A stretch of DNA of 64,000 nt from IMG/VR virus record IMGVR_UViG_3300032267_001142, positions 32,001 through 96,000 of that record, one strand, 5' to 3'. The first letter of the stretch is position 1, and each line of letters starts with the position of its first letter. Source of the DNA: a virus. The notes under the pieces were generated by a model, which ran no database searches, was not told the DNA's origin, and worked only from the letters and a program-made list of their open reading frames with translations. Shown piece by piece: positions 5,698 through 34,739 of this stretch. A program made the position numbers and the translations under genes.

Positions 5698-7635
5698 ATG
5701 TCAAAAGTCAAGAAATCCATCAAAAAACAAACAGCCGCATCTATCGGAAGCAATATCACGCTGAAAGATTTGGCGGATGATGGCGGAAGAGGTATGATTT
5801 TCGCAGACACCGAAAAGCCGATGAGGGTTTCCGCTTCTCGTTCTGTAGCTAAGTCGCGGGTCAACAAGTGGTTACAATCCGAAAACGACTCTCTTTATCC
5901 GAATATCCGCACATTAGTTGACCCTATTTCTTCCAACGGAGGAGACTCCGTAGATGCTAGGGACGCTATCATGCTATGCCAGAAAGCGTATCGAGGCTTT
6001 CCGTTACTCAGGAACATTATCGACGTGATGACGGAGCTTTGCAACAGCCGACTTTTCTTAAAAGGGGGCAATAAAAGCACCAGAGATTACATCATGGGAT
6101 GGTGGGATACTATCAATATTTGGCAGTTGCGAGAGCAATTTTTCCGCGAATTTTTCCGTTCGGGCAATGTTTTCATTTACAGGCTAGAGGGGCAGTTTAA
6201 GCGTAGCGACCAACTAAAGCTAGCTCAGTCTTTCGGCTCGGTTCGAGATGACGCCAAAGTCCCTGTAAAATACATGATATTAGACCCTAAAGAAATCAAA
6301 ATTGACTCAAACGTCTCGCTTCAGGAGCCGATATACCAAAAGATTCTAAACTCTTTTGAACTGTCCAGAATCATCAAGCCCCAGACTCCCGACGACAAAG
6401 CGATAAGAGACTCCTTGAGTCCCGAATCTCTAAGGGCACTAAGAGATAACGTCTCTTCTTCGATGCCGCTGGACCCCAAGTCTATCGTCGCTGTCTTCTA
6501 TAAAAAACAGCCATACGAAGCTTTTGCTGTTCCTTTTGCGTTTCCTGTCTTAAGGGATATCGACGCTAAGCTTGAGTTGAAGTCGATTGATATGCGCGTA
6601 GCTAGGCAGCTAGAGCGAGCGTTCCTTCTCATTACTGCTGGAGCCAAGATAGAAGATGGAGGCGTCAGCGCCGCAACGATGCAGGCGCTACAAAATCTTT
6701 TCGCAAACGAGTCTCTAGTAAGGACTTTGGTGGCCGATTACACCGTAAAAGCTGAATGGCTGATTCCTGATGTTAACAAAGTCCTTGGCACCGCAAAATA
6801 TGAGCAGCTAGATAAGGATATCGCCGCTGGATTGAACGCCATACTGTTCTCCCAATCCGAAGCTTTCGCGAACACTAGCATCAAAGTGCAGGTCTTTATT
6901 GAGCGGCTAAAGGAAGCTAGGCAGGCTTTCTTGACCAGCTTTTTGATTCCTGAAATAAAGAGGCTCTGCATTGCTATTAACGCAAAATCATGTCCCGAGC
7001 CCCTATTCGAGGAATTGAATCTAAAGGACGAACTGCAATACTGCAAGATGTTCACTACTCTGGCTCAGTTTGGCCTTCTCACTCCAAAGGAGCTTTTTGA
7101 GGCTATCGACGGTGGAAAGCTTCCTAATCCAGAAGAAAGCCTTGCTAACCAAGAGGAGTTCCTCGGTCAGAAGGAGCGCGGATTCTACGCGCCGTTAGTG
7201 ATGTCTGGCAATTCCGATAATACAGATAAAGGAGGTAGACCTCAAGGCTCCAAAGCTCCTCAATCTACAAAAGAGATTACTCCTATCGGCCAATCTAACG
7301 CTTCTATCGGTTTTGGCGTCAAGGCTTTTGCGGAAAACTTGGAGAAACTAAATGACCTTCATCAAACCGTGGCGACAGAACTAAGAAAGACCTTCAAAGT
7401 CAGAAAGTTCAACGATATTCAAAATAGAGCCTGTAAGAGTCTTACGGAGGTCATCGTAGCCAACGAACCTGTTGAAAATTGGCATACCTCTATAGCTAAC
7501 TATATAGGCTCCGACAAAGTTGCTCCCGACGAGTTCGAGAAAGAAGTTGATTCAATAATCGGAGAATACGGAGTGGATAAACTAACGGCTATCGCCCTCA
7601 AACTCTCGAAAACGACTATTCCAGATGGACAATAG
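5698..7635 (+). CDS. Portal protein
   Basis: Position after terL; 645 aa; FFRSGNVFIYR and PFAFPVLRDI segments typical of portals. Confidence 0.8.
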   Translation: MSKVKKSIKKQTAASIGSNITLKDLADDGGRGMIFADTEKPMRVSASRSVAKSRVNKWLQSENDSLYPNIRTLVDPISSNGGDSVDARDAIMLCQKAYRGFPLLRNIIDVMTELCNSRLFLKGGNKSTRDYIMGWWDTINIWQLREQFFREFFRSGNVFIYRLEGQFKRSDQLKLAQSFGSVRDDAKVPVKYMILDPKEIKIDSNVSLQEPIYQKILNSFELSRIIKPQTPDDKAIRDSLSPESLRALRDNVSSSMPLDPKSIVAVFYKKQPYEAFAVPFAFPVLRDIDAKLELKSIDMRVARQLERAFLLITAGAKIEDGGVSAATMQALQNLFANESLVRTLVADYTVKAEWLIPDVNKVLGTAKYEQLDKDIAAGLNAILFSQSEAFANTSIKVQVFIERLKEARQAFLTSFLIPEIKRLCIAINAKSCPEPLFEELNLKDELQYCKMFTTLAQFGLLTPKELFEAIDGGKLPNPEESLANQEEFLGQKERGFYAPLVMSGNSDNTDKGGRPQGSKAPQSTKEITPIGQSNASIGFGVKAFAENLEKLNDLHQTVATELRKTFKVRKFNDIQNRACKSLTEVIVANEPVENWHTSIANYIGSDKVAPDEFEKEVDSIIGEYGVDKLTAIALKLSKTTIPDGQ

Positions 7636-10237: not shown

Positions 10238-11743
10238 GTGAAAGACCCAGAAAGCTACAAATACAAAGCTCGGTTCTCCGCCTCACTTAGATGTGATGCG
10301 GATTTCGGTGGTCTCGCGGATAAAAAGCTTTCGATAGCCTCTTTAGATGGGCTCTCTAAAATCCTTCCTACTTACGAAAAGGTCGACGACTTTCAAGACC
10401 TTCTTCCTGTAGTAGGAAACGCTTGCGTTATTAACTACGCGAATCTTCGAGACGAGATGGTCGATACCGCAACCGGTCTCAACCTGAAAAGATGCTTCGC
10501 TAATAAGTTCATGAACGTCGAGCACGACCGCAAAACGGTCGTCGGCCACTGGAAAGACGCTTTTTATACAAAGTTTCATCCTGAATATAGATTAGGCAAA
10601 GGCTCTGAGATTATTCCAGACGAAGAAATTGAGGGAATGACCGAGCCTTTCAATATCGCCCTATCGGGATTCGTTTATGGAGTGGCTTATCCCGCGCTAG
10701 CTAAACAAATAGTAATAGCGAACGACCCTGACAGCGAAGATTACTTGAGTATATGTATTTCTTGGGAATTAGCTTTTGATTCCTATAGCATCGCTTTGGG
10801 TTCGTCTAGGAAGTTGTCTGATTGTGAAATTCTAACTTCGGAAGCTGATATAGAAAAATACACCCCATATCTTATCACCGAAGGCGGAAGAGGTGTCGCG
10901 CCTGATGGACGCAGAGTATTCAAGCTCATCAATAACGGCGTGTTGCCTCTCGGGGCGGCTTTGACTTATCAACCAGCCGCACAAGTAGCCGGTCTCGTAG
11001 CTGATGCTCCCAATAAAAAACTTACTACAGACGCAAATATAATTGAGGATTCTTCAAAAAACATTTCCCAAGAACATCCTGAGCTTGTAATGACTAATAG
11101 CACAATGAACACTCTCAATTCTCTAGCCGACATTAAGGCACTTACCGAAGAAGACGCAAAGCAGTATACTCTCGCTAGCGTTAAGGGCCTAATCGAAACA
11201 GAAATTCAGCAACTAGTCGAAGCTCACGACAAGAAGGCTCAAGAAGAAGCCCAACGCGCCGCTACTGCCGAAAAGAAAGCAAATGAAGCGCTCGCAAGTT
11301 TGGGTTCACTTAAGTCCGAACTCGAAGCACTCAAGCTCGCCGAAGCGCAGCGAGCCGCCGCAGAAGCTTTTAATAACCGCATGTCGGCTCTTGATGAGTC
11401 CTTCGTATTGACAGTTCCTCAGAGGACTGCCATCGCAAGCCAAATCAAAGACCTCGACGAAACTCAGTTCTCGAACTGGAAGACTTCCGTTTTTGAACCT
11501 TTCGCAGTAAAGCGCGAAGCGGTCGTAACGAAGAGCCAGACTGTCGCTTCCGTTACCGCTCCGATTCCTCCAGTAGCCGACGTCAGAAGTGTCGCCGCAG
11601 AAGCGGTCGCCGCAGTCCAACAGCCAGCGACTCCAGTTGTCGCAATCGCTGCCGCTCAGGCTCCAGAACCAATTTCCGAAACTCTTCGCAAGGCTTTTTC
11701 AACCGAAGCTGGCGGAGGTCTCACAATCGTAACCAGAAACTAA
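10238..11743 (+). CDS. Prohead protease-scaffold fusion
   Basis: N-terminal protease-like region (MNVEHDRKTVVGH, ICISWEL), C-terminal Ala/Glu/Lys coiled coil; precedes the capsid genes. Confidence 0.7.
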   Translation: MKDPESYKYKARFSASLRCDADFGGLADKKLSIASLDGLSKILPTYEKVDDFQDLLPVVGNACVINYANLRDEMVDTATGLNLKRCFANKFMNVEHDRKTVVGHWKDAFYTKFHPEYRLGKGSEIIPDEEIEGMTEPFNIALSGFVYGVAYPALAKQIVIANDPDSEDYLSICISWELAFDSYSIALGSSRKLSDCEILTSEADIEKYTPYLITEGGRGVAPDGRRVFKLINNGVLPLGAALTYQPAAQVAGLVADAPNKKLTTDANIIEDSSKNISQEHPELVMTNSTMNTLNSLADIKALTEEDAKQYTLASVKGLIETEIQQLVEAHDKKAQEEAQRAATAEKKANEALASLGSLKSELEALKLAEAQRAAAEAFNNRMSALDESFVLTVPQRTAIASQIKDLDETQFSNWKTSVFEPFAVKREAVVTKSQTVASVTAPIPPVADVRSVAAEAVAAVQQPATPVVAIAAAQAPEPISETLRKAFSTEAGGGLTIVTRN

Positions 11744-18263: not shown

Positions 18264-19052
18264 ATGAGCAATAAAGAGACAAAGGAAATGTATAAGTTCG
18301 TCTTCCCTCAGAAGACGATTATTGATGACAGAGAAGTCAAAGTCGACGAGTCTGGCAACGAAACGACAGTAATAACCAAAAAGCCGTCTTTTGTAGACCG
18401 CTCAATTAGACTGACCGTAGCTACTCGCCGCCAAATGGACGATGCTGAACTTTATTACAACGTGCTGGTAAGCAAGGGCATTCAGGCCGGTCTGATGAGC
18501 CGTCAGCTTTTGCAAAAGCGCTTTCTCGATGATGGTGGTCTTTTGGCAGAGGGGCAGAAATCCAAAGAGAAGTCCCTTTATGAATCCTTGAGCGAAAAAG
18601 AGTCGCAGTATTACTCTTTGCTCACGAAGCAGGACAAAACCCAAGAGGATACTGAGTCTCTCGCCAAGATTCAAAAAGAGCTGGCGCTGTTGAAGCATGA
18701 ACTTCAGTCTTGGGAGATGAGCAAGATGTCTATCTACGACATCACGGCGGAAAACCGAGCGCGCAACAAGACTATCCTCTGGTGGCTTTTTGAACTTAGC
18801 CAGATTAAGAATGATAAAGGCGAATGGGTGGCTCTATTTCCAGGAAAAACGACAGAAGAAAAATCAGACAAGTATCATTCACTCTTAGAGGGCGAGGGTT
18901 TAACTAAGGAAGACACGGAATTCTATCAAAACGTTATTTCTAAGTGTCTCATTTCTGTTTCCTATTGGTATTATGGCCGAGCCGAGTCGCAAGAGGATTT
19001 CGAGAAAGCTCAGCAAGAAATAGACAGGGACTCTAAGCTTCTTGCGGAGTAA
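18264..19052 (+). CDS. Tail assembly chaperone candidate 1
   Basis: Between tube and TMP; coiled coil, TAENRARN motif. Confidence 0.55.
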   Translation: MSNKETKEMYKFVFPQKTIIDDREVKVDESGNETTVITKKPSFVDRSIRLTVATRRQMDDAELYYNVLVSKGIQAGLMSRQLLQKRFLDDGGLLAEGQKSKEKSLYESLSEKESQYYSLLTKQDKTQEDTESLAKIQKELALLKHELQSWEMSKMSIYDITAENRARNKTILWWLFELSQIKNDKGEWVALFPGKTTEEKSDKYHSLLEGEGLTKEDTEFYQNVISKCLISVSYWYYGRAESQEDFEKAQQEIDRDSKLLAE

Positions 19053-19058
19053 AACAGG

Positions 19059-20066
19059 ATGAGCGAGACTTCAGCGAAGTCTATCGCTTTTTTGCGAAGG
19101 GTTTACTCTGAGATATTCTCTGGGTATACGCCTTTTATTGACCCGATAAGTGGAAATAGGGCGTTCATCCGTCACGTCTCTTCTTCGGAGCAGTCGGAGC
19201 TGGATGCCCGATACGAAGAGATTCTTGAAGACATCGTCTCTAAAGGCGTCCCGAATGAGGCGTCAGCACTTGCTATCGCTAAAGAGCGCGGTTTCTGGAA
19301 AGACTCTACTGACAAAGAGTTAGAAATAAAAAGAGAAGAGCTTCGTCAATTGAGGGATACGAAGAAGTGTCTGATTTTACCTTCTCAGATATGCAGCATC
19401 GACAAATCTATCGCTGATGCCGAAAGTTACATTCGGGGCGTCGAAATTGAGCGCGAGGAAGCTTTAGGTGTGACAGCGGAATCTCTTGCGATGGCTAGAT
19501 TGAATAACGTCTATATCCAACTAATGATGTTCTGCGACAAAAAGTTGGAAGTCCCGCTTTTTCCACCGGAAAGGTTCGATACGCTACAATATCGAGAGGT
19601 AACTAACGTGACGGCGGCATATAACGCCGCGATGTCTAAATTCGCGAACGTGAACATTAAGAATCTTTCGGTCGCCGCGTTTGTGCAAAATATGTTCAAT
19701 CTAGCTGGCAAGAAGCCATATTCTTTTTTCGGCAAAGCTATAGGCGGTCTGACCTTTTATCAAATAGAGTTGATGAATTATGTCGCTTATTTTTCTGCGC
19801 TTTTGTCTTCAGAAAACAGACCTCCTGACAGTATAATGGACGACCCAGAAAAAATCGTCAACTGGTATACTGCGGAAAAGAACAGTCGTGAAGCGCTTAA
19901 GTCTGGCAATGGGTCAGTGTCTATCGCCGGAGCGACTCAAGAAGATTTACAGCAATTGGGTGTCGCGAATAAAGTCGTAGATTTGGCAGCGATAGCCAAG
20001 AAAAAAGGCTCAACGGGCCTGACTATGGATGAGTTAATGTCTATTTCCCGTGGTGCGTCGTCATAA
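19059..20066 (+). CDS. Tail assembly chaperone candidate 2
   Basis: Directly upstream of TMP; helical; FFGKAIGGLTFYQ motif. Confidence 0.55.
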   Translation: MSETSAKSIAFLRRVYSEIFSGYTPFIDPISGNRAFIRHVSSSEQSELDARYEEILEDIVSKGVPNEASALAIAKERGFWKDSTDKELEIKREELRQLRDTKKCLILPSQICSIDKSIADAESYIRGVEIEREEALGVTAESLAMARLNNVYIQLMMFCDKKLEVPLFPPERFDTLQYREVTNVTAAYNAAMSKFANVNIKNLSVAAFVQNMFNLAGKKPYSFFGKAIGGLTFYQIELMNYVAYFSALLSSENRPPDSIMDDPEKIVNWYTAEKNSREALKSGNGSVSIAGATQEDLQQLGVANKVVDLAAIAKKKGSTGLTMDELMSISRGASS

Positions 20067-20102: not shown

Positions 20103-23100
20103 ATGCCAACTAGCGTTACTAACATACAGGCTAATTTAGACATGGTGCCAGTGAGCACCAAGGTCGACAACTATCTGTCCGGACTGGAGAGAAAGACTTA
20201 CAAAATCAAATTCGACGCTCAGCCGCTTGGTCACTTAAGCGGAAAAGCCTCCGAGTTTGAAAAGTCTCTCGAAGCTGCTAATGCGCGTGTCGTCGCGTTC
20301 GGTGCGTCGGCAAGCCTGATTGCTGGCGTAGGAACCGCCATGAAAGCGATGGTCAGGGAAGCCGTTCTCGTCGACAGAGAACTTACTGACATCAATGCTA
20401 TATTGCAGGCGTCTACCGGAAACCTCCAAAAGTTTGGTGATAGTCTGTTCGATATCGCAAAAAATACAGGCTCGTCCTTCTCTCAGGTTGCCGACGCCGC
20501 TAAGGAATTTGCTCGTCAAGGTCTTTCAATGGAGGAAACGTTGTCGAGAACGAACGGAGCGCTCGTCTTGACGCGTTTGTCGGGTTTGGAAGTCCAAGAC
20601 TCTGTAAAGGCTTTGACTGGAACTCTCAATACTTTCACGAAAGAGGCTCTAGGAGTTTGGGAAGTCGTGAACCGTCTCGCGAATGTTGACGCCGCTTTCG
20701 CCGTAAGCTCGGCTGACTTGGCCACAGCTATATCCCGCGTAGGTAACGTCGCTGAAGACTCGAAAATCAGTCTTAATGAACTTCTTGCTGCGGTTACCGC
20801 AGTTCAACAGAGAACTGCACGAGGCGGCGCGACTATCGGTGAAGCTTTCAAGACCATCTTTACTCGTCTTGAGCGTTCTGACACCATCGAGAAGCTTGGT
20901 CAGCTAGGTATCGCCACAAAGAACGTAGAAGGTCAGTTGCTTCCAGCAATGCAGGTGATGGAGACCCTTGCTGACAGGTTCTATACCCTTAGCGATTCTC
21001 AGCAGTCTTACATTGCCGAAGCGGTCGGTGGAGTTCGTCAGTTAAACATTCTGAAAGCTCTTCTCAAGGACTTGGGCTCGGAATATTCGATTTATAAAAG
21101 CTCCTTAGACGTAGCCAACAATACGACTAACGAGGCTACGACCAGAAATAACCTTCTCAATCAATCATTAGCCGCTCTTAAAAATAGGGCGTCGGTAGAT
21201 TTTTCTAAGTTTTCTGCGGCGACTCAGACAGCTTTCGCTCCCGCTTTGGAAAAGATATTTGGAGGATTTTCAGAAGTCGTCGCGGGCACGAATCTAGAAT
21301 CTAGTGGTAAGAGCATGGGAGACGCCATATTGAAAGGTCTGGGCTCAGTTATCTCGGGGCCGGTCTTGCAAGCCGTCACCGTTTTGGGTGTTAAATTCCT
21401 AGCTCAGTTTTCCGGTTTCGCGGCGAAGTCGTTGCAGCAGGTTCTTAATATCGGTAGCGTTTCTCGTAACGAGCTAGCCTTGCAGAAGGACATAAACGCC
21501 GTATTAGCTCAGACGCCTCACCTATATGACCAGATTCTTACAAAAGCTAAAAGTACTGTAGATGTTGTTCGTATTCTTTCCGAACACACAAAAGAACTAC
21601 AACTTGCAGGAGCGAGACAAACAAATATAGTAGGAGGCTCAGCCGCGCTACTCAACTCGTTAGGAGCTAAAGGCTCGTCTGAAGGAAATGGAAATTTTAA
21701 GCTAAAAGCTTCTGGATTCGTGCCTAATTTTGTAGACCCTATCGCGGCAATGGGGGAAGTCGCTAGTGCAAAACGCGCAGGGTATAACATATCACCTTCT
21801 GAGGTGCGCTCTATGCGGGCGCGTATTGACGGACGTAGCACTGAGGTTGTTTACAACACCCGCGAGACTGTAATCCCTAATTTTGCAGGGACCGGAGAAC
21901 CGGCGATAGTTCCTCCTAACGCGTCTATCTCTGACCTTATTAGCAGAAAATATGCCGCGAAAGGCGTCATGCCGGGCGGGCAAGAGCTAATTGGAAAAGG
22001 CTCATATCGCCGAGTATATACTCACGAAAAGGGAATAGAAAGCATTCCTCGTTCTGCTGAAGAGGTTTATCCTTCTGTTTCTAAGTTCATGACGCTGGAC
22101 GACGTTAGGGAGCTTATGGCCAGAGAAAGGCGTACGCGGCCAGCGTTGCAGAAGTCTATTGGAGACTTGGGCCTCGGACCAAAAGTATTCGATATTAGGG
22201 AAGACGGTTCTTATGTGGCCGAAAGAGTTTTGATGCCAAAGCTATCGGAGGCTTTAGCCGCAGGAACGATGACCAGTAAGGAAGCTTCTTCCATTCTGGA
22301 GAAAGCAAAGAAATCGCTAAAGGCCAAGGGTCTCGGAAATCTAAACGACGTAACATTTAATAATGTTGCCGGTAACGTAAACACGGGCAAGTTTTCTGTT
22401 TTAGATTTTGGTGGCGGGTTCGTCCCTAATTTTGCGAATTATTTTTCCGCGCCTACGAAGCGCTCAGAGCAACTGCCAGCCGATTTCCTTGAAAAGCTTC
22501 GTTTTCAAGGCCACATGCCTCGCGTTAGAATTCCCGCTAAAGATTTGGCGGTTTTTACGCCTGAGACTTTTAATTTCGGCATAGGTGATGGTTATGCTAG
22601 CCCTTTGGAGGCTGGGACTCAGCTTTACGGATACGGCAAAGAGGACATCGCTGAAAAACTAAGAGTTCCAACCGTGAACGGCGTGGCTTATGACGCCGGT
22701 ATTTCTGCTAGATACGGTAATCTAATGAAGGGTTTAGCTGGGCGAGGCGAGGCTGGAGCGGTGCTTCAGTCCATATTTGAAGACCAAGCTAAGAAAGGTA
22801 ACGACCGCATTATGCACGGTTTAGCTGTCGACGCTGGCGCGGTTTTCAGTTTGAAGACCGATGCCGGAAAGTCTCGTAGCTATCGCGATAACGGCCCCGA
22901 CAGTAGTGGCAAAACTTTTGAATCTGATTTCTTTAGGCAATATTTGAGTGGTTCACCTCTGCCGTCCTCAAACCAGCCGGTAGACGTCTCGGCAGCGAAT
23001 ATTGAAAAACTTAGGTCTGGAGATTTCAAAGCCTCATTGCCCTCTTGGATAACCCGTGGAGAATTAAAGATTTCGGCCTTTGAGTATTCTCAGCGCCGTG

Positions 23101-26100
23101 GCAAATCAACAGGAGCTTCTCCTAGCATCAGCCGTATCGTCGCTAATGAGCTTGTGTCGCGCCTCGACGAAGCCCTGCCAGCGATAATCTCTGACCCATC
23201 GGAGCTGAGAAGGGCTCTCAACGAAAAAACCAGAAAAGGAGAGACTTTCGGCTCAGTCCTGTCCAGAACTGCAAAATTGAACCCCGCCATATACAAGGGG
23301 CGCGGATTCGTTCCTAATTTTAGCTCCTCTCAAATTTCAGCGAGAGAGGCTATCGCGAGCGGTCTTACCTCTCAGATTCCTGGTCTCGGCGAAGCGATTT
23401 CTAGAGAAGTTTCTGGAACAGGCGTCTCTTTGGATGATACGAGAGTAAACCTCGGCGGACATTTGCCAGTTTCAGTAACAAACGTCAGAGACGAGGGACC
23501 ATTAGCTCTGCCTGAAATAGGCGCTGCCAGAGTTTCTAGAAGAGGCGGAAATCCTCGCTTAGCAGGAAGCGGAAAAGAGTATCTATCAAGAGGTTACGTT
23601 CCTAACTTTGCGACCGAAGACGACGAAGGTTTATTGATGCCTAGCAGCTCAAATCTGCCGGATAGAATTGTCGTTGTTGAGGTTAAAAATGCAAACGAGC
23701 TTGGACAAAAAATAGGCAATGCCGTAGCCGATGCAGACAAAAAGGCCAGCACTTCCGCTGGGACCGACACTAAAAATACGCCAACCGCTCCGAAGGTCGT
23801 CACTCCTCCTGTTTCAAGCTCCGAGAGCTTTCTTGACGGGGGAGACATAGCCCCGTCTAAGGACAAAGAGGAGGCTATAAGAAAAGACAAAGAAGATACT
23901 CGCAGAAATCAACTCGCCTTGGAGAGGGAGGGCGAAGCTTATCAAAAACGCAGGGAGTCCAAGGCTAAATGGGAGCAAAGGGCGATATACGGAAGCCTTG
24001 GCGTTTCGTTCTTAGGTGGCGCTATATCTAGTCAGTTTGGTGGAGATACTATCTCTGATAGAAAGACGGGCAGAAGAGTCGACGCCGCTGGAGAAGCCAT
24101 CTCTACTGGCTTAGGTGCATTTTCTGCAACAGGCAACGTTTACGTTGGAGCTGCTGCTGCGGTTGGTAGTTTGTTATTCAATTTAGGCAAACTAGGGACG
24201 ACTTTTGAGGACTTAGCAAAAGAGAGCGAAAAGCTTACCGCGAAGCATGCTGAAGTGACTCAGTCGCTTTCTGGGTTCTCGGTCGCGGTATCGCAGACTG
24301 ATGACTTAATCAAAGGCGGAGCCTCTAAGTCTGCTATTTTCCGAGCGCAGCAAGCTGAACAGGAGGCGTTCAATAGAACTCCGAAGGAATTACAGTCCAA
24401 GCTTCTCGCGGCGAATCGCGACCAAGAGACTCTCGCTAAAATACAAATAGACATAGCCAAAGAGCAAGAAAAAGAAGCTGCATTCGCAAATCTTTCTACC
24501 GTATCTAAAGGATATCAAGAAAAGGCTTACAAAAACCGAGGCTTTTTCGAGAGAGTGGGTTCAGGATTGGGACTTCCTTCGCTTGCTAACTTCGTCGCTG
24601 GAGCCACCGGCTTGAAGAAAACGGACGAGCTTAGTTCAAGTAACTACGATAAAGATGCTTATAAAGAAATCTCCGCCCTAATCCAAAAAACCGGCATTCT
24701 AGATAATCTCGACAACTCTCAACTGTCAGAATTGCGTGATAAACTAAAAGCCGCTCAATATACAAGTGCTAACGATTCTGCTTCGCTGACTCCTAATCAA
24801 AATACCCAAGCTAGAATTGCCGCTGTCGTAAAGCAACAAACTGGAGCGTCGTTGCCCGAAGAGTTTTCAGAGACCAATGGGACTATCGCCATCAAGGCGT
24901 TCTTGAGCGCCATCACTGGACAAGAAAATCTAAAGAGGTTTACTGACGCGCAGAAATCAGCTCAAGCTTTTTATATTTCGATTCGTTCGCTTTCTACCGC
25001 GTTTCAAGAATCGCAGAGGGCTACGTCAGCTTACGATAGCTTCGTGACTCAGAAAAGCTCTTCCGCCGCAGGTCTGGCTTTTGGCGGACTCCGTGGTATT
25101 GCGTCGTTAAACGAGCCATTTACATCTAGCGATTCAAAAATTCAAGAATCTTACAGAATTTCTAAAGCAGAAATCGAAACTTCAAGAAGTCTTGAACTCG
25201 AAAAAGCTCGTAACGAAGCAAGGGTTAACTTGAGTCAGGCAGTCTCTCCTCAAGTTATCGAGGAGGCGGTCTCAGGTAAGGGAGGAATAGCGTTTAAGGC
25301 CAACTTGAGGGAAGTTCTCGCGCAGGCGCAAACCGGAGACCCTTCTGTTATCGTCGCGAGACTATTATCATCTTTGGAGAATGCGAAAAATGGGAAAGCT
25401 GAAGGCGTTAGCGTAAGTGACTCCGCAGGAGCAGAACTCATAAGTACGCTCAAGACTTTACTATTCAATCAAAACTCGACAAAAGCCTCAATCAACGCGT
25501 CATTTAACGACAAATCTAACGATGCGTTTCAACAGGCCGGACTCGCTAGGACGGGAGCTGCGCTGGATTTCATAGGCAATCAGTTCAGGGGCTCTAAAGC
25601 CTTTTCGAGTGATGGTCAAGACATTTCGACTTCTTCTAAGGGATTTGCGGCGATACTAGAGGGAATAACGTTAACCAACGATAAGAGCGCGCAGAGACGT
25701 TTCAGACAGAGCTACAATAATCCCGTCGGCCCATTCGGTCCTGCGAGAGCTAATTTGGTATATGACGCCGAGCAAAAGAAGCTGCCGATATACGAAAACA
25801 TTGCGGCAGGAATCAAGGACGACGCCGCAAGCGGTCTTGGACCTACTCAGGAATTGGTTGATTTTCTAAACCGACAGGGTCGCTCGGCTGAAGCGGAAAA
25901 AGCCGCGAAAGGTCTTGCTCGAAATAGAGCCAGACTAGAAGGAGCTTACAGCGCGCAAGGCAAGAGCTTTCTGCAAAAAAACGGACTCGCTGATTTCGCT
26001 CAATTCAAAGACGCCATAAAAGGTGATGTCTTCGAGGGCTCATCTGGAGGTCGAGTTGATATATCTAGGACTTTGAATGATGTAGAAGCTGCCGTTAAGT

Positions 26101-27071
26101 CTACTGACTTCGGAAAAGCGCAAAGTCTTCTTTCGGGTTTGAGAACTTCTGCCAGCCCAATAGCCGCTAAGAAAATCGACGAATTTTCACAAAGAATCGG
26201 CGGTCTTAAGAGTCAGTCAGAATTACTGGGCGTCTCTGCGAATCTGCAAGCCGCTAAGGACTTGAAAGGCGGCGCTGGCCCACTTACAAATGATAAATAT
26301 TGGGAGGGCGTAATAAAGCTTTATGGCGCGTTGGTATCAAGGTTGACTTATTCGGAAAACCGCGAAGCGGTCGATACCGTAATGGGTTCTTCATTAGGCG
26401 CACTCAAAAATATTACATCTCTTGGGGCGAATCCCGCTGCAATTTTTACTTCTGGGGCTTTCAGCACCACGGGCGCAAAACTCAATAGCGAGGTTGAGGC
26501 TACTAGACTCTCATTGAGTGCCGCGATGGATAAGGCCACTCCTAAATTTGTAGACCCAAGACTGCCTCAGTATTCCGAAATTTATGCAGGACCGCAAAGA
26601 AGAGTGCAGGACGCTATAACTGCTTTACCTGCTGGCACTGGTGTCGATAAGAGCATGGTGGCCATCATGAGTGATGGTTACGGCGCTGACAGGGAGTCTA
26701 CCGATAGAAGGGTTTATGAGGACTTCGCTAGAATTCTGCGTGAAAATAACAAAGTCGGCTCGTTGCTAGGTTCGACTCCTACTAATGACATAGTGGGTAG
26801 CGTTATGAACGCGGTTAATGATGCGCTGCGTCGCGACGTAGGCAATCGTTACGAATCTGGGAATCTCGGCAAGGATATCAAGGTAAACACTGATGGGACA
26901 ATTACTCTCAACGCTTCTGTAAATATCAAAGCCGACGAGTCGGATGTAGCTCAGAGAGTTAAATCGGAATTCGATAAGGTGTTTGAAAATCTTCAGTATC
27001 AGATTCAACAAATCATCAATCAAACTGGGGCGGTAATTCCTCCTAGGTCGTTCAGTCAGCCTGTTCAATAA
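20103..27071 (+). CDS. Tail tape measure protein with internal enzyme-like cargo block
   Basis: 2322 aa; N-terminal TP901-type TMP core (DIAKNTGSSFSQVADAAKEFARQG...IGEAFKTIFTRL), Ala/Ser-rich helical C-terminal half, hydrophobic segments. Confidence 0.9.
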   Translation: MPTSVTNIQANLDMVPVSTKVDNYLSGLERKTYKIKFDAQPLGHLSGKASEFEKSLEAANARVVAFGASASLIAGVGTAMKAMVREAVLVDRELTDINAILQASTGNLQKFGDSLFDIAKNTGSSFSQVADAAKEFARQGLSMEETLSRTNGALVLTRLSGLEVQDSVKALTGTLNTFTKEALGVWEVVNRLANVDAAFAVSSADLATAISRVGNVAEDSKISLNELLAAVTAVQQRTARGGATIGEAFKTIFTRLERSDTIEKLGQLGIATKNVEGQLLPAMQVMETLADRFYTLSDSQQSYIAEAVGGVRQLNILKALLKDLGSEYSIYKSSLDVANNTTNEATTRNNLLNQSLAALKNRASVDFSKFSAATQTAFAPALEKIFGGFSEVVAGTNLESSGKSMGDAILKGLGSVISGPVLQAVTVLGVKFLAQFSGFAAKSLQQVLNIGSVSRNELALQKDINAVLAQTPHLYDQILTKAKSTVDVVRILSEHTKELQLAGARQTNIVGGSAALLNSLGAKGSSEGNGNFKLKASGFVPNFVDPIAAMGEVASAKRAGYNISPSEVRSMRARIDGRSTEVVYNTRETVIPNFAGTGEPAIVPPNASISDLISRKYAAKGVMPGGQELIGKGSYRRVYTHEKGIESIPRSAEEVYPSVSKFMTLDDVRELMARERRTRPALQKSIGDLGLGPKVFDIREDGSYVAERVLMPKLSEALAAGTMTSKEASSILEKAKKSLKAKGLGNLNDVTFNNVAGNVNTGKFSVLDFGGGFVPNFANYFSAPTKRSEQLPADFLEKLRFQGHMPRVRIPAKDLAVFTPETFNFGIGDGYASPLEAGTQLYGYGKEDIAEKLRVPTVNGVAYDAGISARYGNLMKGLAGRGEAGAVLQSIFEDQAKKGNDRIMHGLAVDAGAVFSLKTDAGKSRSYRDNGPDSSGKTFESDFFRQYLSGSPLPSSNQPVDVSAANIEKLRSGDFKASLPSWITRGELKISAFEYSQRRGKSTGASPSISRIVANELVSRLDEALPAIISDPSELRRALNEKTRKGETFGSVLSRTAKLNPAIYKGRGFVPNFSSSQISAREAIASGLTSQIPGLGEAISREVSGTGVSLDDTRVNLGGHLPVSVTNVRDEGPLALPEIGAARVSRRGGNPRLAGSGKEYLSRGYVPNFATEDDEGLLMPSSSNLPDRIVVVEVKNANELGQKIGNAVADADKKASTSAGTDTKNTPTAPKVVTPPVSSSESFLDGGDIAPSKDKEEAIRKDKEDTRRNQLALEREGEAYQKRRESKAKWEQRAIYGSLGVSFLGGAISSQFGGDTISDRKTGRRVDAAGEAISTGLGAFSATGNVYVGAAAAVGSLLFNLGKLGTTFEDLAKESEKLTAKHAEVTQSLSGFSVAVSQTDDLIKGGASKSAIFRAQQAEQEAFNRTPKELQSKLLAANRDQETLAKIQIDIAKEQEKEAAFANLSTVSKGYQEKAYKNRGFFERVGSGLGLPSLANFVAGATGLKKTDELSSSNYDKDAYKEISALIQKTGILDNLDNSQLSELRDKLKAAQYTSANDSASLTPNQNTQARIAAVVKQQTGASLPEEFSETNGTIAIKAFLSAITGQENLKRFTDAQKSAQAFYISIRSLSTAFQESQRATSAYDSFVTQKSSSAAGLAFGGLRGIASLNEPFTSSDSKIQESYRISKAEIETSRSLELEKARNEARVNLSQAVSPQVIEEAVSGKGGIAFKANLREVLAQAQTGDPSVIVARLLSSLENAKNGKAEGVSVSDSAGAELISTLKTLLFNQNSTKASINASFNDKSNDAFQQAGLARTGAALDFIGNQFRGSKAFSSDGQDISTSSKGFAAILEGITLTNDKSAQRRFRQSYNNPVGPFGPARANLVYDAEQKKLPIYENIAAGIKDDAASGLGPTQELVDFLNRQGRSAEAEKAAKGLARNRARLEGAYSAQGKSFLQKNGLADFAQFKDAIKGDVFEGSSGGRVDISRTLNDVEAAVKSTDFGKAQSLLSGLRTSASPIAAKKIDEFSQRIGGLKSQSELLGVSANLQAAKDLKGGAGPLTNDKYWEGVIKLYGALVSRLTYSENREAVDTVMGSSLGALKNITSLGANPAAIFTSGAFSTTGAKLNSEVEATRLSLSAAMDKATPKFVDPRLPQYSEIYAGPQRRVQDAITALPAGTGVDKSMVAIMSDGYGADRESTDRRVYEDFARILRENNKVGSLLGSTPTNDIVGSVMNAVNDALRRDVGNRYESGNLGKDIKVNTDGTITLNASVNIKADESDVAQRVKSEFDKVFENLQYQIQQIINQTGAVIPPRSFSQPVQ
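21714..23609 (+). repeat. Four G[FY]VPNF peptide repeats in TMP plus one degenerate VIPNF
   Basis: GFVPNF at 21714-21731, 22416-22433, 23304-23321; GYVPNF at 23592-23609; VIPNF at 21870-21884; codons differ between copies. Confidence 0.9.
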
Positions 27072-31997: not shown

Positions 31998-34739
31998 ATG
32001 GCAATCTCAAGTATACCACAGGTTAAAATCAACGGCTCTTCCAAGGCTTATGGAGGTTACATCTTTAATGTCAATTACGTTGTTGGCCTTAACAAAGTTC
32101 CTTCAGAAATAACAATATCTTTTATTAGCGAATCCGGCTCATATCAACGCCCTACCCTTTCGAGCACGGTTCCCGTAAAAATCTCTATAGGCAATCTCGT
32201 CGACGATACGTTTTACCCAATCTCTCTATCTGACAAGCGCAGCGGCGGCTCCAAAACCCTAGACGTTACATTCCGCGATTCTAGTCTAATTCTTGACAAA
32301 TTGTTTATCGGATTGCACAAGCAACACGGTATCAATAAGAGGGCTGTCAGCAGAAAGAGCGCGACTAGCCTAGATAACTATGTGTCGAGCATATACCCAG
32401 ACCCGATTCTTCATGTTTCGGAAAAAGGCTCGAATCTTATCATCGTTGGCGAAGAGGTTCACCCGTGCGACATGAACGACGATTTAGTTTTCGATGCTGC
32501 GGATTTGGAGCTGCTCGCTTACGACGCTAGTGACCCCTGCCAGCTCAAATGCAATCATCATTACGCGGATTACAACTCTATACACGCAGAATGCGTCACA
32601 AAAACCCGCACCTCAATTCTAGAAGTCAATTATAATCTAGAAGAGCTTCTCGCGGCAATCTCTCAGTATGTCTCGGTCGCTCAGGAGCCTTCGGATGTTC
32701 ACACAAAATATCGAGCAAAATATACGGGGACGTTAAGGTCTGTATTGACTAGCTGGTGTTCCGACTTGGGATTATCTTTCTTCTGGGAAAAGGGACAGCT
32801 ACATTTTGTAGATGTAAGTAAGAGAGTTAAAATAACGATTCCTGAGCTTCCTTGCTTTAAGGAATTCGAGTTCAATTCTACACTCGAAGGCACAATCTGC
32901 CGAGGCACCATAACTAATTATTCAAAACAAGGCGAAATCATTTCCACCAATTGTAATTCGCCACAACCCGTTGCTCTTTCTTGTCTTACGCTACGTGACT
33001 TGTATCGTGATGTCTGGGTTCCTTCTGACCCGTTTGGCGACACTGGGACACCTCACCAGAAAAACAAAAGCTCTAGCGCGGCGGTAGGCACTTCTTCGTA
33101 TAAGTATAAAGACACTAAATATCCGCTAGGGGTTCCTGTCGAAAAACTGGAAGAGGCAGTTATTTGTTCTTTCTATGACCAGCGATTGAGATGGTTGTAT
33201 ATCCTAAGAAATTACTATGGACTGAACCAAGTCTCCGATTGGAGAGCCTCGATTAACGGGACGGCTGATAGGTTCGGGCAGATGAAAATTCTTGGCGTGT
33301 GCGACTCTTCTGACACTACGGCTTACTCCGCGCTGACTGCCGACGGAACTGCTTTTGATGTTAAACGTGGCGAACTAAAATCTTTCCAAGATAACCAAGG
33401 ATTCTTCGTCATCGCGGAGCTGAACCAAGACCTGTTAGAAGAGCAGTACGCGTTTGAGGCTGGCCTTGGCGCGTCTTTTATAGGTCAACACTGGGTTCGC
33501 AGCTATATCGGCCCAAATTCAGGCACCGCTCCAGAAATTAAACCCAACGGTCAATATTTGGGCGGAGCGACGGCGGAGCTTAAACAAGCAGGCTTCACTT
33601 CATTTCGGCACTCAAACAACTCTAAAGTAGCTAATCTCGCGAGACAACTTCAGGAACAACCCGAGTTGCTAGACAACAAAAGCCCGCTGAAGAATCGAAA
33701 TTTTATTCACAAAAACACGCGTTCTGTAATTTACTACGACAGAGGCTCCAACGCGAGATGGATGCCAAGAAGGGACGACAAACAAAACGAATTTCAAAAA
33801 GTCCTAGATAATATGGCCTCTCAGATGCCTGCGGTCATCAACGTTCAGGAGGCGGCAATTACTAATGTTCTGGCGTCTTTGCAAATATCGAACGCAAAAA
33901 ACGCTAAAGATTTGCAACAAAAAATCAAGGACAAAAAGGTTGTCATTTTGGCAATGTATCCAGGATACTTCACCATGACTGCATCGAAAGTCACAAATCC
34001 AGAAGAGGAGAGCCCGATGCACGTTCCTATCGGAGAGTCTTCGGTTTCTCAGCTCGGGCTGATGTCGAAGACTTCGTATAAGTATCTAGTCTGGGGAATG
34101 CCCGTTATTATGCCCGCCGCGTCTTCATGTAGGTTTAATAAGGACTACGATGACCCGTTGCTGACGACCTCAACAAACTTCCAGTTAAAAGTCAGGACTC
34201 AGGTCGATATGTCGAAGCCTTCTCTGATTACGGCTCCTCATTATCTGGTAGCTGTAAATCAAACCTATACGCCTTATTTTGAACTACCGAAGATACAGGC
34301 GGTGTTTTCCTCTTCTCCTGCGGTTGGGGACGCGCTTGCTGTCGAATACGCCGTTTATCCTCAAGGCTCCAAAAAAGAAATGGCTTTGCTTGCAAATATG
34401 AAAGACGAGTGCGTGCCTGATACGTCCTCTTTGCAGGCTTATCATGACGATTTCAACGCCAAACTCGTTGAAAGTGTCACGGAACCCTTTGACAGTTATA
34501 CGTTTTCGATTGACGGAGTTACCCTAGACAGCGCAGTGACGCCATCTATTTCCAATGGTTTAGAAAGAGTCAACATATCTGTATCCGAAAGAGGTGTTTC
34601 GTCTTCGTTCACTTTTGGAAATTCTTTGTTTACACCGATTCGTTTGGATACGAAACGCCAAGAAGTAGAATACGCGCTGGCGGCTTCTAGGAGGTCCGAA
34701 TTGTTCGGAAAATACGCAATGCCATCTCAGTCAGTATAA
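31998..34739 (+). CDS. Baseplate hub / tail tip protein
   Basis: 913 aa; TLDVTFRDSS and GTLRSVLTSWCSDLGLSFFW pattern typical of hub proteins; synteny. Confidence 0.55.
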   Translation: MAISSIPQVKINGSSKAYGGYIFNVNYVVGLNKVPSEITISFISESGSYQRPTLSSTVPVKISIGNLVDDTFYPISLSDKRSGGSKTLDVTFRDSSLILDKLFIGLHKQHGINKRAVSRKSATSLDNYVSSIYPDPILHVSEKGSNLIIVGEEVHPCDMNDDLVFDAADLELLAYDASDPCQLKCNHHYADYNSIHAECVTKTRTSILEVNYNLEELLAAISQYVSVAQEPSDVHTKYRAKYTGTLRSVLTSWCSDLGLSFFWEKGQLHFVDVSKRVKITIPELPCFKEFEFNSTLEGTICRGTITNYSKQGEIISTNCNSPQPVALSCLTLRDLYRDVWVPSDPFGDTGTPHQKNKSSSAAVGTSSYKYKDTKYPLGVPVEKLEEAVICSFYDQRLRWLYILRNYYGLNQVSDWRASINGTADRFGQMKILGVCDSSDTTAYSALTADGTAFDVKRGELKSFQDNQGFFVIAELNQDLLEEQYAFEAGLGASFIGQHWVRSYIGPNSGTAPEIKPNGQYLGGATAELKQAGFTSFRHSNNSKVANLARQLQEQPELLDNKSPLKNRNFIHKNTRSVIYYDRGSNARWMPRRDDKQNEFQKVLDNMASQMPAVINVQEAAITNVLASLQISNAKNAKDLQQKIKDKKVVILAMYPGYFTMTASKVTNPEEESPMHVPIGESSVSQLGLMSKTSYKYLVWGMPVIMPAASSCRFNKDYDDPLLTTSTNFQLKVRTQVDMSKPSLITAPHYLVAVNQTYTPYFELPKIQAVFSSSPAVGDALAVEYAVYPQGSKKEMALLANMKDECVPDTSSLQAYHDDFNAKLVESVTEPFDSYTFSIDGVTLDSAVTPSISNGLERVNISVSERGVSSSFTFGNSLFTPIRLDTKRQEVEYALAASRRSELFGKYAMPSQSV

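Follow-up and report, generated by a model that had tools for sequence, protein, structure and literature searches.

What is a short peptide doing four times over in the middle of a phage tape measure protein (TMP)? The question is raised by a 64,000-nucleotide (nt) stretch of viral DNA, positions 32,001 to 96,000 of IMG/VR record IMGVR_UViG_3300032267_001142, which we term the window. A single open reading frame (ORF) on its + strand, 20103-27071, encodes a TMP of 2322 amino acids (aa), designated P0001, in which the hexapeptide G[FY]VPNF is repeated; the features of P0001 described below are on the same strand, with coordinates of the window. A reading made from the sequence alone had taken P0001 for an effector polyprotein and the hexapeptide for a protease site, a site of asparagine autocleavage or a joint that tolerates recombination. 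The best reading to emerge from our analysis, which we hold with moderate confidence, is that of a TMP whose cassettes are fenced by this peptide, here called the joint, and which delivers the passengers that it carries.

P0001 matches the Pfam family PF10145 (PhageMin_Tail) over aa 119-309 with 100.5 bits, the cut-off being 33.2, as well as 13 TMP families of PHROG (best E value 1.9e-52). The matched stretch (20457-21029) is the conserved N-terminal TMP domain, with 43% identity to the relatives P0003 and P0004, and the start of the protein is backed by an alignment to P0003 from residue 8. On our reading the middle third of P0001 is a region of cassettes. From the N-terminus to the C-terminus, P0001 comprises the TMP N-domain, a first hydrophobic segment, module 1, a kinase-like cassette, segment B, module C, a charged linker, a second hydrophobic Gly-rich segment and a long C-terminal TMP part, which we assumed to be largely helical.

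The joint peptide and its family

Four exact copies were found where the sequence-only reading had placed them: three of GFVPNF, at aa 538, 772 and 1068, and one of GYVPNF, at aa 1164 (nt 21714, 22416, 23304 and 23592). There are also two degenerate ones, VIPNF at aa 590 and KGVMPG at aa 620. The composition of P0001 leads one to expect 5e-5 such hexapeptides per protein, and a degenerate DNA pattern for the peptide picks out just these four sites in the whole source record (186,105 bp, with direct terminal repeats).

Relatives were sought by a HMMER pass over 1.84 billion cluster representatives. Of its 31 matches nearly all are TMPs, either 1500-4900 aa in length or fragmentary; P0028, which has cytochrome-c-like repeats, was discarded as spurious. 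The closest relatives, P0003 and P0004, share about 43% identity with P0001 over aa ~8-690 and ~11-775, respectively. A tblastn search with aa 520-1180 against 50,697 phage records found no match, and an IMG/VR scan with a profile of module 1 yielded 23 pattern matches, none of which was confirmed.

Within this family (55,568 aa) the string [VI]PN[FY] is observed 50 times, with 0.75 occurrences expected. The logo derived from 57 joints, which were gathered by a PN pattern that itself selects for the Asn, reads A-x-G-[FY]-[VI]-P-N-[FY]-A; in the A2 alignment of relatives only the Gly and the Pro of the joint are invariant. As far as the aligned sequences tell, a joint common to a clade of about 30 distant TMPs takes the form G[FY]VPNF in P0001. 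The joint has two roles. Firstly, it borders paralogous modules of about 90 aa. Secondly, it stands alone between passengers, in linkers modelled with low confidence that are probably flexible. In the AlphaFold2 (AF2) models, joint residues at both ends of the kinase-like cassette and of module C have a predicted local distance difference test score (pLDDT) below 50. We found no paper in the literature that pairs this peptide with tape measure proteins.

Two paralogous modules

Five of the six joint-like peptides of P0001 belong to two modules, which we call PNF modules 1 and C. Module 1 (aa 535-625; 21705-21977) opens with joint 1 (GFVPNF, nt 21714-21731), has another inside it (VIPNF, nt 21870-21884), after which comes G-x-G-E-P-A-I-I-P-P, and closes with the degenerate KGVMPG (nt 21960-21977). 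Outside the N-domain no stretch of the family is better conserved: the module shows 40-64% identity in about 26 relatives and always follows closely on the N-terminal part of the TMP. In it E, A, G-Y, R, G, V-x-x-N-x-x-E-x-V and G-E-P-A-I-I-P are nearly invariant. A feature search of the ESM Atlas with this module returned no usable match.

Module C (aa 1068-1169; 23304-23609) runs from joint 3 (GFVPNF, nt 23304-23321) to joint 4 (GYVPNF, nt 23592-23609). It shows 53-65% identity to modules in P0003, P0005 and P0006 and is partly present in P0022; shorter forms occur in P0024, P0025, P0026 and P0031 and, in addition, near the C-termini of P0003 and P0026. In this module R-E, V-x-N-x-x-D-E, G, R, G, G and P-N do not vary. 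AF2 models it as a small alpha/beta unit, with pLDDT values of 73-94 for aa ~1075-1152. A profile search of the PDB with module C found nothing, a search of this genome for a second copy returned the known one alone, and a three-copy complex prediction scored 0.08, which speaks neither for nor against a trimer.

The two modules were linked by hhalign with 74% probability and an E value of 2.9e-5, and MAFFT spontaneously placed the module C rows on module 1. On this comparison they are paralogous. Judged by their conservation, the segments aa 544-625 and 1074-1163 are family-wide modules with the motif as their own borders and not swappable cargo. This trims the earlier idea of an effector polyprotein: a cassette with a kinase fold remains to support it, and two of the four inter-motif segments drop out as modules of the family.

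A further joint-like peptide, the degenerate TPKFVDP, is found in the C-terminal part at aa ~2147 (26541-26557; DNA repeat family D2); its DNA and the 3' half of joint 1 agree at 16/17 positions. The string V-G-N-R-Y-E at aa ~2245-2255 matches the core of the C-terminal module C copy of P0003. Taken together, the two may represent a decayed C-terminal PNF module.

A kinase-like cassette and an orphan segment

The stretch that follows module 1 (aa 626-771; 21978-22415) is a truncated protein-kinase-like cassette, identified by alignment, AF2, Foldseek and VIA. It displays a G-loop (IGKGSYRRV), Glu653, a catalytic loop with Asp749 and Asn754, and Asp768 of the DFG motif. The corresponding cassettes of P0004 and P0026 are 46 and 30% identical to it, respectively, and the P0026 copy sits at a different place in its protein, between two joints at aa 1196-1369. 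In the alignment of these three sequences IGKGSY, E653, D749, N754 and D768 are invariant. The cassette is under selection, since the G-loop, the Glu, the Asp, the Asn and the DFG Asp are kept across three proteins at 30-46% identity.

The AF2 model of the cassette has a pLDDT of 78.8. In Foldseek all 50 PDB matches listed are kinases, with probabilities of up to 1.0, as are nearly all of the 50 matches listed among viral models (BFVD). VIA places the cassette nearest to PRPK/Bud32 (Z 9.4; root-mean-square deviation 3.5 Å over 134 residues), Rio2 (Z 9.4) and the Shigella effector kinase OspG (Z 9.2; 128/168 residues), followed by NleH1 and Ark1 (both Z 8.3). A profile search of the PDB with the cassette has Ser/Thr kinases at the top with E ~0.05, the G-loop and the catalytic loop through to DFG being matched in order. 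The Pfam family ABC1 reaches 19.3 bits with P0026, below its threshold of 22.9. Pfam gave no match to any of the four inter-motif segments, aa 626-771 included, at E values of up to 10, and a PDB sequence search with the kinase segment alone gave nothing useful. Our models assign aa 626-771 a bilobal protein-kinase fold that is truncated at its C-terminus: the cassette ends four residues after the DFG Asp, with the C-lobe cut short. At that point joint 2 begins (GFVPNF, aa 772-777; 22416-22433; pLDDT <50), which stands alone between two segments that are not modules.

The second of these, segment B (aa 778-1067; 22434-23303), is a 290-aa orphan with no assigned fold. Among the 1.84 billion cluster representatives no homologue was found beyond itself; Pfam gave no match at E values of up to 10, and PDB sequences and the ESM Atlas gave none. 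When aa 778-1175 were modelled with AF2, segment B had pLDDT values mostly of 30-50, too uncertain for fold comparison. The best VIA score with that model, Z 4.9, concerns a low-confidence helical stretch only. For a PD-(D/E)xK nuclease at aa 930-1067, a possibility considered here, we found no support: there is no Pfam or PDB sequence match, and the pLDDT of 30-50 is too low for a valid fold comparison. The prediction of at least two enzyme-like segments was not borne out, aa 626-771 being the only one to give an enzyme fold and segment B giving none.

Homology breaks at the joints

P0001 and P0004 are similar as far as aa 775, which lies inside joint 2, and differ beyond it. Similarity between P0001 and P0003 resumes at aa 1077, just after joint 3. 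The comparison of P0003 with P0004 shows the same behaviour: aa 1-610 of the former match aa 1-605 of the latter, aa 624-706 match aa 767-853, and the two are alike again after the GFNPM joint (36% identity, E 1.5e-11). Relative to P0003, which has one joint at this place, P0004 carries a kinase cassette of about 160 aa between an A-G-G joint and the GFNPM joint. We read the cassette as an insertion because the P0003 matches resume across it, with a single joint there. On the evidence of these alignments, homology between relatives breaks at the joints, to within a few residues. The proposal of a recombination-tolerant joint is supported by these breaks and by the kinase-like cassette itself, which is present, absent or moved among relatives.

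The slot after module 1 is occupied by a kinase-like domain in P0001, P0004 and P0034 and by a zincin-like module with an HExxH motif in at least 14 other relatives; P0031 has a weak match to the metallopeptidase family DUF6782. Stand-alone joints fence cassettes in P0003, P0026 and P0031.

Some relatives show a wider range of passengers. HExxH modules lie between joints at aa 1065 and 1425 of P0026 and at aa 173 of P0006, thus at varying positions and, in one TMP, twice; rather than processing peptidases, these modules may be enzymes that degrade the wall, akin to the motif in pb2 of phage T5. Inspection by eye of the cassette region of P0031 (4929 aa) brought up GAAGSGKTS, which is a P-loop string, and GAFSPATKGHLG, an H-x-G-H string like that of nucleotidyltransferases, as well as an HExxH module; this set of cassettes looks far richer than that of P0001. 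P0001 is a modest instance: it has four joints and one recognisable domain, whose active site is doubtful.

One relative, L010:1551-11250 (contig JAAURC010000035.1, GCA_012033295.1), has its TMP in three ORFs of 1058, 361 and 1749 aa in three frames. We considered this as a natural split at the joints and rejected it, as the breaks are frameshifts and do not fall at joints. The first break is inside the kinase-like domain and the second is about 200 nt before the ATG of the third ORF; assembly error, decay or programmed frameshifting could account for them.

Proposed function and alternative explanations

TMPs exit the tail first and enter the cell envelope. Because they do so, and because a kinase needs ATP, we infer that the block of cassettes, delivered with the TMP, would probably be exposed to the cytoplasm between two hydrophobic segments. 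The first of these, Gly-rich, spans aa 408-439 (21324-21419), with a mean Kyte-Doolittle value of 1.3-1.7 in 19-aa windows. An acidic, charged linker of low complexity (aa 1170-1290; 23610-23972), evident from the translation and its composition profile, leads from module C to the second hydrophobic Gly-rich region (aa 1293-1365; 23979-24197), which is conserved and aligns with the equivalent regions of P0003 and P0004. The flanking hydrophobic segments that the sequence-only reading had drawn are confirmed for the first; the second is Gly-rich, and only its peak at aa 1346-1364 passes the Kyte-Doolittle cut-off.

Two versions of this mechanism differ in what happens at the joints. The joints would either be processing sites, like the cut in the T5 TMP, at which the cassettes are freed, or remain uncut as flexible connections that tolerate cassette exchange. 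Cleavage is plausible, with T5 pb2 as the precedent, and we suggest it tentatively, at somewhat less than an even chance. In its boldest form the proposal is that the joints are sites of the same processing activity that cuts the TMPs of T5 (pb2) and lambda (gpH), multiplied in this clade, so that the TMP would be cut into several pieces, including a minimal OspG/NleH-like kinase set free in the host cytoplasm before the DNA arrives; such a TMP would amount to a programmable delivery polyprotein. This we regard as rather unlikely.

A number of observations weigh against a TMP that delivers passengers fenced by joints. Arg650 is at the position of the beta3 Lys, which P0004 and P0026 keep, and the catalytic-loop His is absent, N-L-N-D standing in place of H-A-S-D or H-A-D in the relatives. 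With the ATP-anchoring Lys replaced by Arg and the loop His missing, kinase activity of the cassette is doubtful, and the sequence suggests that it may be weakened, inactive or repurposed. Segment B may not be cargo but a spacer. PNF is missing from about 11 of 28 relatives, which have only A-G-G-h-[IM]-P-x-x at homologous places. The phage and its relatives are uncultured. The closest relative is at 43% identity, hence recent swapping cannot be shown. P0001 has no HExxH module and the zincin-like module of P0026 has no copy elsewhere in the genome of this phage, on which grounds a protease in cis is missing. The parallel with T5 consists of a few residues and a position and is a lead, not membership; when module 1 was aligned by hhalign with aa 1100-1219 of T5 pb2 and with aa 700-853 of lambda gpH, the probability was 0.1% in each case, that is, no homology.

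The strongest alternative is structural. The joints would never be cut; the modules would be a duplicated element of the TMP for docking to the hub, the tube or assembly chaperones, or for acting on the cell wall in the manner of the C-terminal fragment of T5 pb2, with the joint as a border strand, and the kinase-like domain and segment B, partly decayed, would mainly add length. The confinement of five of the six joint-like peptides to two conserved modules is what one would expect on this account, and the invariant charged residues of the modules (R-E, N-x-x-D-E and R) are such as a binding or catalytic site would keep. The module C-like copies of P0003 and P0026 lie about 110-140 aa from the C-termini, where the T5 and lambda TMPs contact the hub (PMC10038345, PMC12617516). 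Arg650 in place of the kinase Lys, and segment B as an orphan modelled with low confidence, fit domains that add length. What the structural account leaves unexplained is joint 2, alone between segments that are not modules, together with the stand-alone joints that fence cassettes in three relatives. Against it, too, the kinase cassette keeps its motifs across three proteins at 30-46% identity, and recognisable enzyme motifs occupy the same slot in relatives. We consider the structural account possible but doubtful.

A second alternative attributes the repeat to the DNA: the 18-nt motif would be kept as microhomology for cassette exchange and the peptide would have no role. The breakpoints at the joints agree with this, as do the four copies, which are identical at 14-17 of 18 nt. 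Nevertheless, all of their differences are at wobble positions, and their flanks of 30 nt match no better than at random (5-10/30). Relatives with only 30-45% protein identity, at which DNA identity cannot persist, still have the peptide, and modules 1 and C contain it as a conserved, built-in element. The different codons of the four copies had been offered as the reason to assume retention at the protein level. The differences are real, but confined to wobble positions in copies so nearly identical that they are weak evidence; the real evidence for selection on the peptide comes from the comparison with relatives. We judge a DNA-only joint to be very improbable.

Least credible of all is cleavage by the Asn of VPNF, which would attack its own peptide bond through a succinimide and split the TMP without a protease: the Asn is present in all four exact copies, in VIPNF and in all 57 joints of the logo (for which the PN pattern selects it), but many relatives have another residue, or none, in its place at homologous joints (GGYIPAS, GGHIPTS, GHMPLP, GYIPSL, GFVPSL), where Gly and Pro alone are invariant, and the joints are in low-confidence linkers, whereas the Asn-lyase sites that are known need a folded catalytic context around them.

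Genome context

In the ORF map P0001 is the longest gene of the tail module, with two mid-sized genes before it and distal tail genes after it, and its stop codon overlaps the ATG of the next gene as TAATG, the coupling already pointed out in the sequence-only reading. Gene order is alike in relatives: two genes of about 260-340 aa, the TMP and then genes of about 530-570 aa. As the map has no sheath-sized gene between the capsid region and the TMP, the phage likely has a long non-contractile tail.

The two genes directly upstream of the TMP, 18264-19052 (262 aa) and 19059-20066 (335 aa), have no Pfam or PHROG match. Pairs of similar size precede the TMPs of P0004, P0026, P0003 and P0034. We take the two upstream genes as candidates for tail assembly chaperones; a frameshift arrangement of the G/GT type is not obvious in them. 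Ten proteins of the structural region (10238-34739) were compared with Pfam and PHROGs and nine had no match; the exceptions recorded are a weak portal match for ORF 5698-7635 (E 2e-6) and a match to RNase_Y_N, below threshold, for ORF 10238-11743. In these libraries the protease label that the sequence-only reading gave to the ORF at 10238 finds no support. The phage is very distant from described phages.

Comparison with known systems

TMPs are usually seen as rulers and channel formers, and a few carry one enzyme, as in T5, TM4 and P23-45. The TMP of mycobacteriophage TM4 reportedly has a peptidoglycan-hydrolase motif. In the Thermus phage P23-45, gp96 is a TMP-fused virion RNA polymerase that transcribes pre-early genes (PMC10770324). 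Such cases show that an active enzyme can enter the host on a TMP; that of P23-45 works on cytoplasmic substrates before phage gene expression. In P23-45 and TM4, in contrast, a single domain is fused or embedded, and neither repeated joints nor cassette exchange nor a kinase is reported.

For processing, the nearest parallels are T5 and lambda. In T5 pb2 the cut comes after R1127, with a hydrophobic stretch on one side of it and an enzyme motif on the other (PMC10038345; Linares et al., 2023). The cut lies in NSFVPR|AEGGMMYPG, which holds strings, F-V-P-x and A-x-G-G-h-h-x-P, like those of our joints, a match too short for statistics; the first joint of P0001 also follows its first hydrophobic segment. 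Unlike P0001, pb2 has a single site near its C-terminus and no repeated joints. Lambda gpH is cut to gpH* and gpHC in a Gly-rich region just upstream of FATGGF, losing about 14 kDa, with both site and protease unknown (PMC12617516). Its C-terminal module, which follows a Gly-rich hydrophobic segment, is likewise bordered by two [FY]-A-T-G-G-[FY] strings (FATGGF and YATGGY; aa 733 and 779), but gpH has no passenger domains. The joint offers a concrete handle on TMP cleavage, for which the site is open in lambda and the enzyme in T5.

The nearest solved folds to the cassette are those of the type III secreted kinases OspG and NleH and of the Bud32/PRPK and RIO kinases, which, like it, are small and lack the usual substrate-binding helices of the C-lobe. 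They differ from it in having 10-16% identity to the cassette, with no family assignment at the sequence level, and in their beta3 Lys, which is Arg here. A minimal kinase of the OspG/NleH/Bud32 type borne on a TMP would, if active, be a new kind of early effector for a phage.

A TMP-derived scaffold with exchangeable domains is found in Sle1-type effectors of actinobacterial contractile injection systems, which are loaded into a tail-like particle (PMC13277306). These systems, compared here by description, are contractile and are not phages; the functional domain is C-terminal and there is no repeated joint peptide. If a clade of phages does have passengers that are fenced and exchanged at one joint, the lumen of the tail would be a general delivery route for ready-made proteins.

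The nearest published concept is that of the polyvalent proteins, which occur in phages and conjugative elements and are giant chains of unrelated domains that are associated with virions or transfer and vary in a cassette-like manner (PMC5512222; Iyer, Burroughs, Anand, de Souza & Aravind, 2017). They include a protein kinase that lacks its C-terminal subdomain, as does the cassette of P0001, and zincin-like HExxH peptidases proposed to process the chain. P0001 differs from them in having one recognisable passenger domain and no zincin module; among its relatives, kinase-like modules are combined with HExxH ones. For polyvalent proteins a repeated joint peptide is not described, and the account of them does not deal with TMPs, the word 'tape' occurring 0 times in it (PMC5512222). 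If the joint-fenced cassettes are what we take them to be, the idea of polyvalent proteins would be extended to tape measure proteins.

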